Source: Sporopachydermia quercuum (lineage: Eukaryota). Taken from it: a DNA stretch of 64,000 nucleotides. The position numbers and the translations under genes are program-made. The stretch lies in assembly GCA_001599295.1 (NCBI GenBank), contig BCGN01000003.1:558001-622000 (forward strand), given 5' to 3'. A model generated the notes under the pieces. The model did no database searches. It worked only from the letters and a program-made list of their open reading frames with translations, and had not been told where the DNA came from. Shown one piece after another: positions 9,065 to 50,018 of the stretch (position 1 is the stretch's first letter; every line of letters begins with the position of its first letter).

Positions 9065-10642
9065 TCATAACGATTCAACTAGGGACACAACAGCGGCTGA
9101 TAAGCTCTCGACTTCTTCTTTAGTTCTAGCTTCAGCATAGACCCTAACAGCATCTTCAGTACCACTTGCTCGAACAAAAGATCTGCCTTGGGCCACTTTT
9201 CCAACCTCAGAATCAATTTTGGCTTGTAAGCCTTCTGGTGATACCAATATTCTTTCAGCATCAGTTGTTTTGAAAACCGATCTGTCTGGCACTATTACCT
9301 TAGCTAGTTTATTAGGTAAATCTGTGTATTCAGCATCCCATTCACTGGGAGCTTCATTGATGATATTCAAAACTGCCAATACTGCCAGTAAATCTGAAAT
9401 AGCATCACCAACAGCTTGATTGATAACCTCAGTAAACCCTTTCAATAGAACTGCTGCTTCAGAATCACTTCCATTCAATACTTCATAAACCTTGGGTGAA
9501 AATAGTACTGTGCCGTGACCATTAGCTTCGAAATACACACCAATGTCATACTCATGAGCAGCGTGATGCAAGTGTTTCACACCAGTAGGTGTGCATGTAA
9601 CAGGAAGATTCAATTTCTTAGTTAAGTATTCAGTACTAGAACCGTTGGCATATGCCGTTTGAACAACGCCAACTGACAGCTTACCTTTCAACTTTTCAGA
9701 TGTATTTATCAACTTCTGGAAGTAAGAAGCAAGTAAGCCAGAAATTTTATCTCCATCAAGCAGTTTAAACGACCCTGAATCGTCAATATAATAAAATACT
9801 ACTCTATCTGCATCTCCATCAAATGAAGCATATATTTCACCTTTCTTCGGATCAACACCTTGTGGTAGTCTCTGATTAGTTTTTACATAATCTGCACCAC
9901 AGTTCACGTTCAATTTGTCCGCAGATAAGTAATTGTCATTTACAATTGCAATATCTAGCTGTTTCTCTAAATATTTAACCAGTTGGTGTAGTTTAGGTCC
10001 ACCAACTCCATTGGCACAGTCAATAGTTACCTTAGGAGGAAACTTCTTCCCAGAAACAAGAGTTACATAGGCAGAACTAAGCTTCTTGTAATAACCTAAC
10101 TCTGTGGGTTCTCCATAAGCAGGATCATTAATACATCTTGTGACGTAATGCAACTGTGGTGTTGTGAATAATCCGTAATCCGTAAATTTAGAATCTCCTG
10201 CTTCTAATGCATCTTTCAAAGAAGATACAAGAAATGGTCCAGAATCTCTAGAGTCTCTCGCATAAACAACATTAGAAGGAACATTCACATCAATTGAATA
10301 TTTGCTTATAATATTGTCAATTACAATACTCAGATCTGCTGAGAGTTCAGCATTCGCAAGTTCTGTGGCCCAATGTTCCCATGATTCTTCAAGCATATCA
10401 CCTAATGGATCAACAAGCTTGACACCATTATCTTGTGGAGGATTATGAGATGCAGTAATCATAACTCCAATGGTCTTACCATTAAGATACTTTGATCGCA
10501 ATACAGCTAATAATCCAACTCTGAAAACGACTGAGTCCAGTAAGCTATGATGCATCCGAAATCCAGCTGTTCCGTACGTATAGGTTTTCCCTTCAGGCTT
10601 CAGATGTACTTCTGATGCTCTTTCTATCTTGTGCGAATCCAT
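9065..10642 (-). CDS. PCM1: Phosphoacetylglucosamine mutase (Pcm1/Agm1)
   Basis: YGTAGFR, catalytic TASHNP, metal loop DGDADR, FEANGHG and RASGTEDAVRVYAE. Confidence 0.97.
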   Translation of the reverse strand: MDSHKIERASEVHLKPEGKTYTYGTAGFRMHHSLLDSVVFRVGLLAVLRSKYLNGKTIGVMITASHNPPQDNGVKLVDPLGDMLEESWEHWATELANAELSADLSIVIDNIISKYSIDVNVPSNVVYARDSRDSGPFLVSSLKDALEAGDSKFTDYGLFTTPQLHYVTRCINDPAYGEPTELGYYKKLSSAYVTLVSGKKFPPKVTIDCANGVGGPKLHQLVKYLEKQLDIAIVNDNYLSADKLNVNCGADYVKTNQRLPQGVDPKKGEIYASFDGDADRVVFYYIDDSGSFKLLDGDKISGLLASYFQKLINTSEKLKGKLSVGVVQTAYANGSSTEYLTKKLNLPVTCTPTGVKHLHHAAHEYDIGVYFEANGHGTVLFSPKVYEVLNGSDSEAAVLLKGFTEVINQAVGDAISDLLAVLAVLNIINEAPSEWDAEYTDLPNKLAKVIVPDRSVFKTTDAERILVSPEGLQAKIDSEVGKVAQGRSFVRASGTEDAVRVYAEARTKEEVESLSAAVVSLVESL

Positions 10643-10717: not shown

Positions 10718-10846
10718 CTTAAAACTCGAAAACAGACTGTTAGTAAAGGAAGGACATCATCATTTACGTAAAACAGAGATGAAGAAACTGTTTGCAGATC
10801 AATTGTTTCCTACACAACAGGAGATCATTCTATTTCTGTCACTTAC
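10718..10846 (-). other. Probable 5'UTR intron of PCM1
   Basis: GTAAGT at 10846 and perfect TACTAAC at 10745-10739; AG acceptor uncertain (about 10718); an in-frame stop just upstream of the ATG argues against a coding exon. Confidence 0.6.
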
Positions 10847-11965: not shown

Positions 11966-12652
11966 TTAAAAGGTTGAGCCTTCAGCCGGCTGTGGTAGCT
12001 TTCTGTTAGAACCACTGGCCATTTCCCTGCAGAAGTTAGTATTGAACTTAGTCGTGAAAATTTTGGAATCTTGGCTATACATATCAAAGCCACATAATAC
12101 TGGAAAACTTACTTTCGCAACTCTAACAATACAGTTTCCATTGTATAGTTTCGTTTCCATTGAGCTAGGCATGGAACAACCGTTGGATTAACAAAACCAT
12201 TATTTTGGTTTACGCAAGGAATATTGATTTTGGAAACGAACTTCACCACAGGTGGCTCATCAGGATATTTAGTACCGCACTCTAACGTAAGACTATAAAT
12301 TCTGTTTTCATGAGCACTCTTCAATCATATTGTTAGTAGTCAATGTAGATACTCCTATTATAGACCATAAGGCATACATATTTTCACACCGTAAGCTGTT
12401 TCACCAAATAAACTTACATGTGGAGGACCAATTATAGTACCATTCCAGTATGTCATTGTCATATCATCAGGATCTGCTAGACCATATGAACATGATTCAG
12501 GACCCAACCCTTTTTCTCCCTTCTCCAACTCTTCTAAAAGTCTGAAACTTCTTGGTCTATAAACAAATCATTTGTTAGCTCGATTCTAACTCAAATCAGT
12601 CAGATTCAGAATCTATTACTCGATTATACACTACTTACACTTTTGCCGACAT
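11966..12652 (-). CDS. MMS2: Ubiquitin-conjugating enzyme variant Mms2 (4 exons, 139 aa)
   Basis: Exons 12652-12639, 12556-12418, 12318-12113, 12026-11966; all three introns start GTAAGT with (G/TA)CTAAC branch points. Protein MSAKVPRSFRLLEELEKGEKG...WNGTIIGPPH|SAHENRIYSL...KLPQPAEGSTF. Confidence 0.95.
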
Positions 12653-44285: not shown

Positions 44286-46898
44286 CTACCGAAAAGCCTT
44301 AGACGAAAATCCTAAATGTGACGATCCACTTTTACTTCTTATTCTTGTTTTATCCTTAGGATTGACAGTGTAAGCAACTGAACCATAGGACTCATTGCTT
44401 GAATAGTACTCTTCCTCATCTCTAGAGATACCATCATGATGTAAAGTCATTGAACTAAACTGCTCAAAAGGATCAGGGTCGTCAGTTGAAGGTCTAGAGC
44501 TGGAATTCGTATCAGTAGTTCCATCTTGCTCTTTTAGCTTGATAGATATGCTTTCGGCATCAACAGAAGCAGAATCCTTTAACTGTGGTGGTGCATGTCC
44601 TGATGACGATAAAACAGGTACCATTGGTGCCGGTTGATTTCTTAATAATGCCCATTGTGTATTTTTGAAGAAAGGATGAGCTTTCACGTCAGAAGCACCA
44701 GCTCGAGAACCAAGCCTTTTGTTTTCATCTTTGATCAATAACTTTCGTATCAATGACTTGCAATTTGAAGAAACCGTTGGATGGTCAGGAAATGTAACAT
44801 CATGTTTCAATATGTTTGAAAATGTTTGATTACGCGTTTTGCCTTTAAAAGGTGTAGTACTAAATAGCATCTCATATATAAGAATACCTAATGTCCACCA
44901 ATCAACCGCTGAAGTATGACCTTTACCTCTAATGACTTCAGGAGCAATATATTCTTCAGTACCAACAAAGGAATTAGTACGGAAATCTCCAATGCAACCT
45001 TTGGTATCAATAGCCGGAATTTGATGGGAACTTGACGATGAGCTTTTAGAGTTAGCGGGTAGAACAATCGATGGCACGCCATTAGTAGTTGACTGCTTAG
45101 ATAAATCAAAATCACTTAACATAATATGACCCGATTGATGTAACAAGATATTCTCTGGTTTCAAATCTCTGTAAATATAACCCATGAGATGTAAATATTC
45201 TAGTGCGAGAATCACCTCTGCAGCATAAAACCTGGCATGTTCCTCTGGTATGCATTTACTAGCTCTAGTTTGTAAGGCACGGAAGAATTCACCTCCCATG
45301 CAATACTCCATACAGAAATAGAGATAATGCTCCGACTGAAAAGAATGGTAAAGGGTGACAATGAAGGGATGATTTGACGTTGCTAAGATCTCTTGTTCAG
45401 CTAGTGCTCTTTTTATTTTATTTCTCTCAATCATTTCCTTCTTTGAAAGAATCTTCATTGCATACAGTCTGTTAGTTTTTTTTTCTCTTACTAGGTATAC
45501 TTTACCTACATCTCCTCTGCCAAGTAGTTTGATTTTTTCAAAAGAGGAAGGTCCAACTTCAACATCTGATACCTTGATACTATTGGAGGAGTAAGTCCTA
45601 TTGAATGATTTCTGTCTGGGACGTGAGGGAGATTTGGCATTTGCTGATAGACCTGTGATTATTTGATTCGCAGGTCGGCGAGAAGCATGGACTGATAATG
45701 ATGTTTCTATACCTCTAGATGGGTCTGTAGTTACTTGCGGAATTGATAGAGGTAGGTTTTTACCCGATGTATTGTTGCTTATGATGTTAAATGAGTTGGA
45801 TGACGACGAAGAATACTTATTCTCGATTGGCGACTGTTCTAGTTCTTTCGCAGCTTCTGTTATAGTTTCTGAAATGTTGAGTTTATTGACTTGATCAGTA
45901 GTAGTTTCATGATATTGTTGTTGTTGCTGCGATAGGTTTTTCAAGTCCAGAGGCGCTGAGGCTATTCGCCTTAGGTTTTTTTCTGACTTACTACTAGGTT
46001 TATTCAGATATGTTGAAGAAACGTTATCACCATTCCTATTAGCAAGTTCATTTCCACTGTCCTTTCCAGAACTACTGGACTCAGCTGATAGTGCTGGTTC
46101 AGCTAGATTTTCCAAAATGATAGAACTATTAAGATTGCTACTAGATAATGTGAATTGGTCACTGTTAATATTGGGTGATCTTGAACTGTTTGATGCTGGC
46201 GATGGTGATGCTTTTAATCCTTGAGGTGTAGCCTTTTGGTTTTGGCAGGAAGAATTTCCTAAAGACAATGATGCGTCAGCAGTTGTACTATCGACAAGGG
46301 ATGTCTTAGAAGGATGGTTTGATCTCAATGATAACAAGTTGAACGAATTTCCACCATGAACTTGTTGCGGTGCAGCTATAGATGATGGATCAGAAGCATG
46401 AGGAGGTAAACCCTGATGAGCAAAATAGGGATTTGATTCAGCGACTGTTGAACCTTCTGATGAGCCAGCAGATCCTGTTTTCCCAGTTCTTGAGATATGG
46501 CGGGTATTGCTAGGATGTACTGGACTTGATGGTGATCTAAGTCTGAATATTGACTTCTTTAACGTATTCCCCATGGTGGGTTCTGATGTTTGTTGAGATA
46601 ATTCATCAGTAGCTGAAAGCGCTAGTGGATCATTTGCTTGTTGAGACAAAATATTGGGTGATGAGGATATTGTATTTGAATTTGATTCCATTGGTGATGA
46701 ATGGTTTGACCCATCAGCTCCAGTTAATGACTCTAGATTTGAAGGGTCCAGACCAGGGTTCATAGTTGGATTGTTGTACTGGGCTGGTTCATTGCCGTTT
46801 GATTCTGACGAGCCAGTTGATGAGAATTTGAACATATGCTTTAGTTTAGAGAGCCCTTTTGAAGGCGTTGGTGTCACAGGTGCACTAGACATAGCCAT
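44286..46898 (-). CDS. FPK1: AGC flippase kinase Fpk1/Kin82 (nrc-2-like)
   Basis: First ATG 46898; [26 protein letters not shown] and [15 protein letters not shown]; long S-rich N-terminus. Confidence 0.92.
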
Positions 46899-48437
46899 AC
46901 TGCTGTCTTCAGCGATATCAATTCTAATACAAGTCCAATTTAAGTCAATGTGTTTGTTTGCCTTGTTATAGAATATCAAATCGGCAGGCCAGTCCCGATT
47001 AATCAAACCAAACTAACGAATGAATCACTCACAACAAATATTATATAGAGCTAATGAATATTTATCAAACCTTTCTTTGCTAAATACCCAATCATCAATT
47101 TTTCCTACCAGTTCTCTTCCAGAGATATATTAAAATATTAATAATGCATTCCTTGATTCATTCACCATACAATTATCTCTAGAGCCTTCTAGGAAAAGAT
47201 ATTCAAACGCTCTCTCTCGCTAATTGTGGAAACAACAAGTACGGCAATGAATGTTCGATCTGTTCTATAGATAGTTTACAGGCTATAAACTGATCTTTTG
47301 ACCTAGAACAACGCACGTTTGGTCTTTTAACTAATAATAATCTTGACGATCTTGTACTATACTAAACTATTATCCACAATGTAAACAGTCAAGCAGAAAG
47401 AATAAAGTGTTAATCAAAATGTACGCTGATTGCTTTAATTGATAGTGGGACACAGCCCTTCCTGGTTTCAGNAACACAAACTGAATGATTGTACTGTATG
47501 GAAATGGTGTAAAAAGGTTTAATTAGTGCCATTCATTGGTTTTGGAATTGTGGGCATAAGAAGGTTAGAGTTGAATGGACATGACATGCAGTAGCTTGCG
47601 TCAAGAAGCGTTTGTAGGGTTGCTTAGTAAGGTGGGGGCAGACGGAAAATCGTTATTGTTTGGTGTTGGTGTACAGCATTATAGTAGAAAATGCAATGTT
47701 CCTTGGAGAATATGATGTAGTTTTGTAGTTACGGATTTGTTGTAGTTGAGGCAGTTTGGTGGTAGGAATGTTGGGATAGCATGAGCTTAATGGAAAGTAT
47801 GCCAGCTAATGAAAGAGCAATTATCAATCTGGTGAGTGATTATTGATAACGTAATCAAAAGCTTAGAACTAAAGATCACAGAGTAAATGAATAATAAATG
47901 GCCGATTATCAGGAAAATAAGGAAAAACATAAGCATTATACGCATAATTAATGATTCTGTTAAGATATTTGTTTGTATTGATTGGTTACACAACTACACA
48001 TGTTTTGAGTAGATAAAACTAATGGAGGGTCAAACGGAGATTGTTCGTAAATGACACGGTTTATTGGTATGATCAAACAATNCAGACAATTTAGGCACCA
48101 AGACAGTTACGTTATATACAAGAATCAAGGAAAATGAGGTCTTGTTGCAAATATCTTTGGCAAATTTTGAACGGAGTACCAATTAGTGAAGCCAGAAAAT
48201 CAAAGGTAGAGTGTTCCATCATCAAAGACACAATATGCTTTATCGTCACTTATTAAATATCAGGGGATTGACAGATAACAAATGGTTTTAATCATTTGGA
48301 AACACATTATCTATAACCTCAGAAATCGCGGTTTTCAACTATTGCGAAAGCCATTTAAAAAAGTTATCACCCAAACAAACTACCAGATAAACGAGTTGTC
48401 GATTGACATAGTATATCGGGAAGTGCATTGAAGTGTA

Positions 48438-48642
48438 CTGTAATGACATGTTAGTACTTTGTTATGGTTAACTGCTGGATGAGATAACAGGTGTACAAAA
48501 AATATTCAACGTGATTCTTNTCAGGGCTTCTTAGAGGATTAGGGTATGAATCATTTGTTTGACATCAACCCGAAATATTTATTCATCATAAAGACAGTGG
48601 TCGTTGAGTACTTTTGATATAGTGACAATCAAACTCACTTAC
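48438..48642 (-). other. Spliceosomal intron of an apparently non-coding snoRNA host transcript
   Basis: GTAAGT at 48642, TACTAAC at 48456-48450, CAG at 48440-48438; spliced flanks give only a 33-codon ORF; RRPE-like GAAAATTTTTC at about 48858-48868. Confidence 0.8.
48516..48594 (-). ncRNA. Intronic box C/D snoRNA, U61/SNORD61-like
   Basis: C box ATGATGA 48589-48583, D box CTGA 48524-48521, terminal stem TCTTT/nAAGA. Guide CCTCTAAGAAGCC abuts the D box and is complementary to fungal 18S (GG)CUUCUUAGAGG; about 65 nt upstream of the branch point. Confidence 0.85.
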
Positions 48643-49391
48643 CATAAGGTAACTAACTACAAGCTAAGTTAGCAGGAGACAGAAAGTTCTGCATTAAAGC
48701 AGACATTTACAACAGATTAAAATTAAAACAGAAAAACATGCTTAATCAAGCAAGTAAGCCAGAACTGTAACAATATTCATATCATTGCTGATCATTAGGA
48801 AGAAAACAACGATAGAGAAAGAAGAAAAATGTGTAAAACTGAGGAGTTGAGAAAATCGAAAAATTTTCGTAACACAGGACAATCTGACATTAATGTCAGA
48901 AATCATATTCTAGGTAGGACATAGGTTGAGATAATTAATAGAATGAATATCTGTTGAAGAAGTCCATATAAGTTAAGCCATGTACCACTTTTTACTATCC
49001 CATTTACATTTCTGTAATCCTGTAATGAATTACTGACAAATTTTCCCATTTTTCCAGTAAATCTTCATTTTCAATTCATAATACCTTACCAGTATGATGA
49101 TAGTTCATTCTTTTCTGCTATCTTACCATGTCGTATCTAGAGTATCATCATATATGTCCCTTTCTCTTTGCTGTCATGACATACATGCATGAATCTGCAT
49201 AATTAATGCTTTAATTACATGTCAGGTCGCGCCATAGCAGAAATAAATTTTCATTTCTTATATCAGTAACATCCTCTATTCTATATATTATCTACATTTA
49301 TTACCAATTATTTATTTTTTCTATACTATCTTACCAAAGATTCAAACAAGCACTTTGTGCATTCATCATCAATGCTTCTTTTTTCTCGAAA

Positions 49392-50018
49392 ATGAAGTTT
49401 CTTACTACAAATTTCGTTCAATGCGCTGTTAAATCCTGCGCTGCCTCAGGAAAGGCATTCCCTCTTCATTATGANATAACTGACTTGGCTCAAACAGAAT
49501 TCGAGTATAATGAAGAATTCCTACTGAATATTTTGCCACGTCTGGACTGGAACGGTGTTCTTTCTGTTGCTAAAGATTTGGGAAATACTTCTTTACCANC
49601 TGTGAAACCTGAGTCTATTGAAGTGGAGACTGAGGATGGGCAGAAGCTCCTACATGATTTGCATACATTACTAATAGAGGTAAGTTGGAATAGTCAATTT
49701 GATAGTTGATTAAAGAAAAAGAAGCAGTATTATAGTTTTCTACATATTATAATTTGTTGCTTTGAAAATATCGCTATTGAACCGATTATCGTGAAGATGG
49801 TGTTAAAGATGAGCGTCTCATCACATTCTCTATCTCATAGAGACCTAACCGATTCACTAAACAGCAGAAGCTAATTATGTTCTTGAGCACGGAATACTAA
49901 CCTAATACTTCTATAGACGCAACTCATCGATGGAACAATGACATGTAGCAACTGCAATCATATTTATCACATTAAGAACTCAATTCCCAATTTCCTATTA
50001 CCACCTCATCTTGCTTGA
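49392..50018 (+). CDS. TRM112: Methyltransferase activator Trm112 (2 exons, 129 aa)
   Basis: Exons 49392-49679 and 49917-50018; intron GTAAGT..TACTAAC..TAG; MKFLTTNFVQC..C / CSNCNHIYHIKNSIPNFLLPPHLA. Confidence 0.96.

Follow-up and report, generated by a model that had tools for sequence, protein, structure and literature searches.

Guide RNAs of the U61 family are small nucleolar RNAs (snoRNAs) of the box C/D class with a length of about 75-85 nucleotides (nt), represented in Rfam by SNORD61 (RF00270) and its plant counterpart snoU61 (RF01170), both in clan CL00067. They possess a single D guide, the core of which, CCUCUAAGAAG, is located two bases from the CUGA box and points by the D+5 rule at a uridine of 18S ribosomal RNA (rRNA). 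Vertebrate U61 is intronic, and most snoRNAs of Saccharomyces cerevisiae and of budding yeasts in general are independently transcribed. Here, we analyzed a locus in a 64,000-nt stretch of the Sporopachydermia quercuum genome (GenBank assembly GCA_001599295.1, contig BCGN01000003.1, positions 558,001 to 622,000), which we refer to as the window. The locus contains an element that shares the box C/D layout, length, guide position, and predicted target uridine of the U61 family, termed snoRNA 1, and a second element of the snoR14/SNORD110 type, termed snoRNA 2. It quite probably represents a short, independent, non-coding RNA polymerase II gene on the minus strand of the 2.5-kb spacer between a Trm112 gene and a kinase gene, with a single clear intron that would carry the U61-type snoRNA, as in vertebrates, and with the second guide RNA downstream. 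This reading is built on established observations, namely the sequence anatomy, its rarity by chance, the in-register resemblance to known families, and an arrangement that is kept in a second organism. The locus is a real feature and a member of known families, not a new kind of system.

The two 18S rRNA methylations concerned have been assigned in human and plants. For Arabidopsis and human, Hoeppner and Poole (2012; PMC3511168) list AtU61/U61 (Um1381/Um1442) and AtsnoR14/HBII-55 (Um1232/Um1288), whereas the accessible part of their data gives nothing for yeast, and the accessible tables of PMC8817022 and PMC11542601 agree, giving both sites for human and plants and leaving yeast blank. This bears out the initial annotation of the window, which had given vertebrate U61 as the guide for Um1442, with no known corresponding site in the S. 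cerevisiae 18S map. A pairing of U1384 with U61.1 is given in PMC8053127, and one of the two ribose methylations is also listed for Dictyostelium, as far as the accessible tables go. For the site of the second guide, Table 1 of a Neurospora crassa survey (PMC2780460) assigns CD44 to 18S-Um1227 and gives S. pombe snR82 as homologue, together with snoR14 of Arabidopsis and HBII-55/SNORD110 of human, with a dash for S. cerevisiae, and the accessible part of this table has no U61-type entry. No U61-type snoRNA appears in the accessible part of the Aspergillus fumigatus list (PMC2377427), and the accessible main text of a fungal snoRNA inventory (PMC5824354; 68 C/D families), the reach of which is limited by its seed sequences, makes no mention of U61/SNORD61. 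In the literature searched, we found no published U61-type snoRNA of a budding yeast, an annotation elsewhere being possible.

With regard to the arrangement of the two elements, the locus resembles the plant U61-snoR14 cluster ("cluster 49" in PMC5122169), in which the same families occur with U61 first, on the same strand, and at most a few hundred bases apart. Two metagenome loci of this plant type (L002 and L017) score above the cut-offs for snoU61, snoR14, and snoZ101, in that order. The window differs from this type in lacking snoZ101 and in the variant C/D pair of its second snoRNA, and its first snoRNA sits in a predicted spliceosomal intron. Non-coding host genes with one snoRNA per intron, such as vertebrate UHG and GAS5 and the UHG-like N. 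crassa genes, share with the putative host of the window a spliced transcript that has no conserved open reading frame (ORF) and an intron that is the useful product, but here a clear intronic location applies to just one of the two snoRNAs. Host genes for snoRNAs have reportedly also been described in yeast.

snoRNA 1 and its predicted intron

As the initial annotation had proposed, the minus strand contains an intron-like stretch of 205 nt (48438-48642) with GTAAGT at 48642-48637, TACTAAC at 48456-48450, and CAG at 48440-48438, the splicing of which would join 48643 to 48437. Inside it lies the described element of about 79 nt (48594-48516), with the C box ATGATGA (48583-48589) near its 5' end, in agreement with RUGAUGA, and the D box CTGA (48521-48524) near its 3' end. 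The D guide (48525-48538) directly precedes the D box. Its core CCTCTAAGAAG can pair with the 18S segment CUUCUUAGAGG, and the 13-nt guide sequence CCTCTAAGAAGCC occupies 48537-48525. The guide is 11-13 nt long and has the register of human SNORD61/U61, and A 48529, the fifth of its bases when counted from the D box, is opposite the second U of GGCUUC in the target, the U that had been predicted. As guide and D box are in the SNORD61 register, the D+5 rule selects the U that human U61 also addresses. Judged by alignment and by the eukaryotic 18S consensus, the U equivalent to human 18S Um1442 would thus fall at the fifth pair. The target segment had been called conserved, and its core is present in the Rfam eukaryotic small-subunit rRNA consensus as well as in one 18S example (L164).

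The splice signals on either side of this single snoRNA are canonical, at both splice sites as well as at the branch point. The 5' splice site precedes the C box by 53 nt, and the distance from the D box to the branch point is 65 nt, which is the spacing that had been estimated for the guide. The GTAAGT at 48642 is also the signal with which all five other intron candidates in the window begin, with TACTAAC or GCTAAC as the branch point.

To estimate the contribution of chance, we compared the window with 100 dinucleotide-preserving shuffles of itself. The composite GTAAGT-N150-180-TACTAAC-N5-30-YAG occurred once in the window with 0.02 expected, the 11-mer CCTCTAAGAAG likewise once with 0.02 expected, and the composite of TGATGA-N30-60, guide, NN, and CTGA once with 0.00 expected. 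Chance does not explain the sequence anatomy of the intron and snoRNA 1.

In an Rfam search of 601 bases at permissive thresholds, the best match of snoRNA 1 was SNORD61 (RF00270), which was covered over the full model (1-72 of 72) with 29.9 bits and an E-value of 0.021, at a gathering cut-off of 43. Guide and D box aligned to the SNORD61 consensus column for column. The proposed relationship to SNORD61 therefore held with respect to the best match and the guide register, but not with respect to the gathering threshold. As a control, we scored 20 metagenome loci that contain a pattern-defined U61-type element: 8 reached a SNORD61 or snoU61 cut-off, 6 remained below it, and 6 had no match at E ≤ 0.1. 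As 12 of these 20 relatives miss the cut-off, a sub-threshold score is weak evidence against membership. Based on its predicted function and its register, snoRNA 1 is classed as a U61-type guide and not as a member by Rfam cut-off. Apart from its score below both family cut-offs, snoRNA 1 differs from SNORD61/snoU61 in an internal part that is unrelated in sequence, in its probable host, a short non-coding yeast gene, and in the two bases that adjoin the D box, which are CC and not UU as in the SNORD61 consensus. Among the metagenome matches listed, TA and TT were the commonest pairs at this place, and CC was found in 3 of 112 distinct elements.

snoRNA 2 and conservation in a second organism

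The second element, which was absent from the initial annotation, follows the 3' splice site of the intron at a distance of 132 nt. It is about 95 nt long (48211-48305, minus strand) and has the boxes C (ATGATTA, 48295-48289), C' (GTGACGA, 48249-48243), and D (ATGA, 48222-48219). The D' guide TTATCTGTCAATCCC and the D' box CTGA together occupy 48278-48260. Pairing of this guide with the 18S segment GGAUUGACAGAU places its fifth base opposite the first U, which is the equivalent of human Um1288 and Arabidopsis Um1232-1235. The predicted 18S target motifs of the two guides are CUUCUUAGAGG and GGAUUGACAG, and the motif of snoRNA 2 is also present in the 18S example L164. The best Rfam match was plant snoR14 (RF01280), with 25.6 bits at a gathering cut-off of 40, an E-value of 0.0089, and the D' guide and D' box in register. 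snoR14 and SNORD110/HBII-55 share the Rfam clan CL00076. The guide core, a 10-mer, occurred twice in the window with 0.16 expected from the shuffles, the other copy being located within the kinase ORF. The terminal stem GTGTTTCCA / TGGAACAC is part of the minimum free energy (MFE) fold, which had a z-score of -3.68.

In box C/D kink-turns, the sixth base of box C is said to pair with the first base of box D. At exactly these positions of snoRNA 2, a U:A pair stands in place of the G:C pair that the box stem usually has, so that the box changes are compensated, and the changed boxes are identical in the second organism described below. N. crassa CD44 resembles snoRNA 2 in that its D' guide is directed at the same 18S U, but CD44 additionally has a D guide to 26S rRNA according to Table 1 of PMC2780460, whereas snoRNA 2 has no D guide that is conserved in the second organism. 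An assignment of snoRNA 2 as a snR55/U33-type guide was considered and is wrong, as Rfam and the published tables place it with snoR14/HBII-55. We take snoRNA 2 to be a real snoRNA gene. Both snoRNA genes are overlooked when a genome is annotated by means of Rfam cut-offs.

The second organism is represented by a metagenome locus of 669 nt, L112, in which six blocks are collinear with the window. The blocks were seeded on shared 9-mers, of which this strand has 47, compared to 11 for the opposite strand, which served as a control. From upstream to downstream, the blocks are the A/T motif AAAATTTTT (window 48867-48859, L112 113-121), the 16-mer ACATTTTTCTTCTTTC (48832-48817, L112 127-142), ATGGTAAGTG (48645-48636, L112 217-226), the guide of snoRNA 1 with its D box (48537-48521, L112 353-369), the odd C box of snoRNA 2, AAATGATTAA (48297-48288, L112 537-546), and the identical 19-mer TTATCTGTCAATCCCCTGA, which comprises the guide and D' box of snoRNA 2 (48278-48260, L112 554-572). 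The order of promoter blocks, ATG|GTAAGTG, U61-type snoRNA, branch point, and CAG is the same in both loci, the splice signals of L112 being GTAAGT at 220, TTCTAAC at 433, and CAG at 453-455. The two loci differ in the distance from the 5' splice site to the C box (53 nt in the window, 80 nt in L112), whereas the D box precedes the branch point by nearly the same distance (65 and 64 nt). For intronic box C/D snoRNAs, efficient release reportedly requires that the branch point lies at a set distance. The terminal stem of the U61-type snoRNA of L112 differs in sequence from that of the window and yet closes the MFE fold, and the second snoRNA of L112 likewise has a closing stem of a different sequence. 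The splice signals, boxes, guide, and spacing that were kept amid diverged sequence constitute the best evidence for an intron and a snoRNA that are presumably functional.

As a side aspect, L112 contains a perfect GTATGT one base past its CAG (214-216 on the plus strand, 456 onwards in the minus orientation), about 70 nt before the second snoRNA. The one-base exon that this signal would imply is implausible, and the sequence of L112 ends before any downstream acceptor.

The host transcript and competing readings

Upstream of the host, the plus strand carries the RRPE-like A/T motif AAAAATTTT (48859-48867) that the initial annotation had pointed out. The motif was not enriched by itself (4 in the window, 5.3 expected from the shuffles), and what weight it has comes solely from a related motif, AAAATTTTT, at the collinear place in L112. 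The pyrimidine-rich 16-mer shared with L112 (48817-48832, minus strand) probably marks the host start region. From there, the putative exon 1 would extend to 48643 (48643-48832, minus strand) and end with ATG in front of GTAAGTG, within the segment ATGGTAAGTG that is common to L112. The putative downstream exon, or 3' part of the host (48040-48437, minus strand), holds snoRNA 2 as well as TATATAA at 48118-48112 and AATAAA at 48065-48060, which may be 3'-end signals.

We modeled the spliced host from the shared 16-mer (48832) to 48040, with exon ends that are estimates. The longest ORF of this model has 36 codons. The ORF across the junction, 33 codons long in the window, has no match in L112, in which the junction ATG opens no ORF of at least 10 codons. 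A protein-coding host that is translated from the ATG before the 5' splice site was therefore rejected, and on the estimated exon ends, the spliced exons contain no conserved protein-coding frame.

The initial annotation had left open whether the host is a non-coding gene or a very long leader of the downstream kinase gene, which it named FPK1, a name that we use as a label only. In the latter case, snoRNA 1 would be intronic as well, but the transcript would continue for about 1.5 kb as a spliced leader of the kinase (FPK1-like) mRNA. Kinase gene and host are on the same strand, no other ORF of at least 60 codons lies in between, and the window contains a candidate for an intron in a 5' untranslated region (UTR) elsewhere (10846-10710). 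Nevertheless, a leader of about 1.5 kb with many short ORFs would be unusual, and another TATATAA is located at 47047-47041, about 145 nt 5' of the kinase ATG. Together with the TATATAA and AATAAA at 48118 and 48065, this second TATATAA suggests two units, so that a separate non-coding host is favored over the kinase leader, with the reservation that these signals are consensus matches only. We therefore regard the leader as unlikely and retain the non-coding host of the earlier proposal.

The initial annotation had also suspected a further host intron upstream, with GCTAAC at 48673-48668 as the branch point and TAG at 48659-48657 as the acceptor, followed by a tiny exon, which would be a micro-exon of 14 nt. 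Both signals exist, the TAG is located 12 nt past the branch A, and in the gene at 12650-11966, one intron candidate has GCTAAC as its likely branch point. A suitable donor is another matter: the sole exact GTAAGT or GTATGT within 1 kb upstream is the GTATGT at 49184, which is beyond the promoter blocks shared with L112, and the nearer donors GTAAAT (48710), GTAAGG (49089), and GTAAGA (49124), identified by eye, are off-consensus. Moreover, no acceptor is found in the stretch of L112 that leads from TACTAAA to the 5' splice site. An upstream intron is thus improbable, and this part of the initial annotation is not supported.

Compared to an intronic origin, it is rather improbable that snoRNA 1 comes from an unspliced transcription unit of its own and that the splice-like signals around it are fortuitous. 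This would be the usual situation in budding yeasts, the snoRNAs of which are mostly independently transcribed (PMC2780460), and snoRNA 2, being outside the intron, needs some other release route anyway. However, in the window as well as in L112, the snoRNA lies between a GTAAGT on one side and a branch point and CAG on the other, the spacing of D box and branch point is the same (65 and 64 nt) despite the diverged intron sequence, and the composite intron pattern is expected only 0.02 times per window. Least probable of all is a decaying relic that has lost expression or methylation guiding, as might be suspected from the sub-threshold Rfam scores, the odd boxes of snoRNA 2, and the loss of both sites towards S. 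cerevisiae, since boxes, guides, and terminal pairing are intact and kept in L112 amid diverged surroundings and the box change of snoRNA 2 is compensated on both sides.

The following aspects weigh against our reading of a spliced non-coding host with two guide RNAs. At gathering thresholds, Rfam yielded no match in the whole window, and snoRNA 1 (29.9 bits, cut-off 43) and snoRNA 2 (25.6 bits, cut-off 40) each remained below the threshold of the best-matching family. The flanks TCTTT and NAAGA of snoRNA 1 can pair, as had been claimed, but this terminal stem has only 5 base pairs, one position of which is an N (48520, directly 3' of the D box), and it is missing from the MFE fold. In snoRNA 2, both the C box AUGAUUA and the D box AUGA deviate from the consensus. 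No GTAAGT or GTATGT occurs between 48437 and 48306, and a second intron around snoRNA 2 was therefore rejected. This snoRNA is located outside the clear intron and has no good splice signals nearby. In addition, the region 48900-48000 contains no AGNN-capped hairpin with at least 5 pairs, which could have been a cleavage mark for Rnt1. L112 was the only orthologous locus found among the matches listed. That the 18S target is present and that the two guide bases nearest to the D box (CC) pair is assumed from the eukaryotic consensus, and we infer transcription, splicing, assembly of the small nucleolar ribonucleoprotein (snoRNP), and both methylations from the sequence.

If the host is expressed in the way that we favor, the intron would be spliced out and then debranched, and exonucleases would trim it to ends that are protected by Snu13, Nop56, Nop58, and Nop1, which would result in a stable RNA of about 80 nt within a snoRNP. 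The guide beside the D box would pair with CUUCUUAGAGG of the 18S rRNA, and Nop1 would methylate the 2'-OH of the second U, which corresponds to human Um1442 and Arabidopsis Um1381-1384. The D' guide of snoRNA 2 would direct the methylation of the U that corresponds to human Um1288, Arabidopsis Um1232-1235, and Neurospora Um1227. Two rRNA methylation guides that are absent from baker's yeast thus seem to survive in this organism. If a budding yeast has retained both guides, their loss would have to be placed within the budding yeasts, and such a yeast would be a tractable organism for asking what these conserved methyl groups do. The locus would also be a further example of a snoRNA host gene that is spliced and non-coding, here in an intron-poor yeast.

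Linkage of the two guides and the surroundings of the locus

We scanned metagenome contigs with the pattern TGATGA-N30-60-CCTCTAAGAAG-NN-CTGA, which yielded at least 130 loci. The matches listed comprise 140 elements, of which 112 are distinct, in 80 clusters at 80% identity, and by eye, the flanks of most of these extracted elements are able to pair. In one of the loci, L060, a gene of the ribosomal protein S11 family has a U61-type snoRNA copy in each of two successive introns (about 590-680 and 880-975 in the minus orientation), the exon between positions 280 and 417 matching Pfam PF00411 with an E-value of 1.4e-12.

Among the matches listed, the U61-type and snoR14-type guides were linked in 21 of the 80 clusters. 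In 9 clusters, the core of the second guide, TGTCAATCC, is a D' guide within the same snoRNA, and in 12 it is found elsewhere on the same strand of the flank, namely downstream in 10 cases (80-191 nt) and upstream in 2. One of the upstream cases, L104, has no CTGA after the core in the extract and may be due to chance. In none of the 80 clusters was the core found on the opposite strand. In view of L002 and L017 and of the plant U61-snoR14 cluster, the pair of the yeast repeats an arrangement known from plants.

These data allow the tentative proposal, which we consider somewhat less probable than not, of an ancient physical unit made up of the U61-type and the snoR14/SNORD110-type guide. It may have started either as one double-guide snoRNA (D' guide for the Um1288 equivalent, D guide for the Um1442 equivalent) or as a tandem pair, and it would now be a tandem in plants, this budding yeast, and several other eukaryote lineages and a double-guide snoRNA in others. 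The S. cerevisiae lineage would then have lost both 18S methylations together with one locus. The recurrent linkage of U61 and snoR14 across distant eukaryotes is the aspect that is likeliest to interest specialists, as it makes the ancestry of snoRNA clusters testable.

Within snoRNA 1, roughly at the place of a D' guide, we noted the hexamer TGTCAA (48558-48563, minus strand), which is the center of the core of the second guide. This hexamer may be fortuitous, or it may have been left over from an ancestor with two guides.

The window is AT-rich, with a G+C content of 35.7%, and has 34 single N positions. Apart from the N in the terminal stem of snoRNA 1, single N bases fall within the Trm112, MutS-like, and chloride-channel ORFs. 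The spacer that contains the locus has a divergent gene on either side. On the kinase side, an ORF of 870 codons (44286-46898, minus strand) encodes an AGC kinase with a Pfam Pkinase domain (E-value 3.5e-72), and a protein-atlas look-up gave Ascomycota kinase clusters as its nearest relatives. On the other side, the Trm112 gene starts at 49392 on the plus strand, and its exon 1 matches the solved Trm112 structures 5cm2_M (E-value 2.4e-29) and 4qtt_A (E-value 1.4e-25).

The other intron candidates are found in or next to genes of the window. The Trm112 intron (49680-49916, plus strand) has GTAAGT, TACTAAC at 49895, and TAG at 49916, and by eye, the frame resumes after it. No snoRNA-like element was seen in this intron, which separates a 105-codon entry of the ORF track from the last exon. 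Another candidate (10846-10710, minus strand), with GTAAGT at 10846, TACTAAC at 10745, and TAG, is located just 5' of the ATG of a 525-codon ORF (9065-10642) and is possibly a 5'-UTR intron. The gene at 12650-11966 on the minus strand has three GTAAGT introns with 5' sites at 12638, 12417, and 12112, the first with GCTAAC as the likely branch point and the other two with TACTAAC, and by eye, this gene looks like a ubiquitin-conjugating-enzyme variant.

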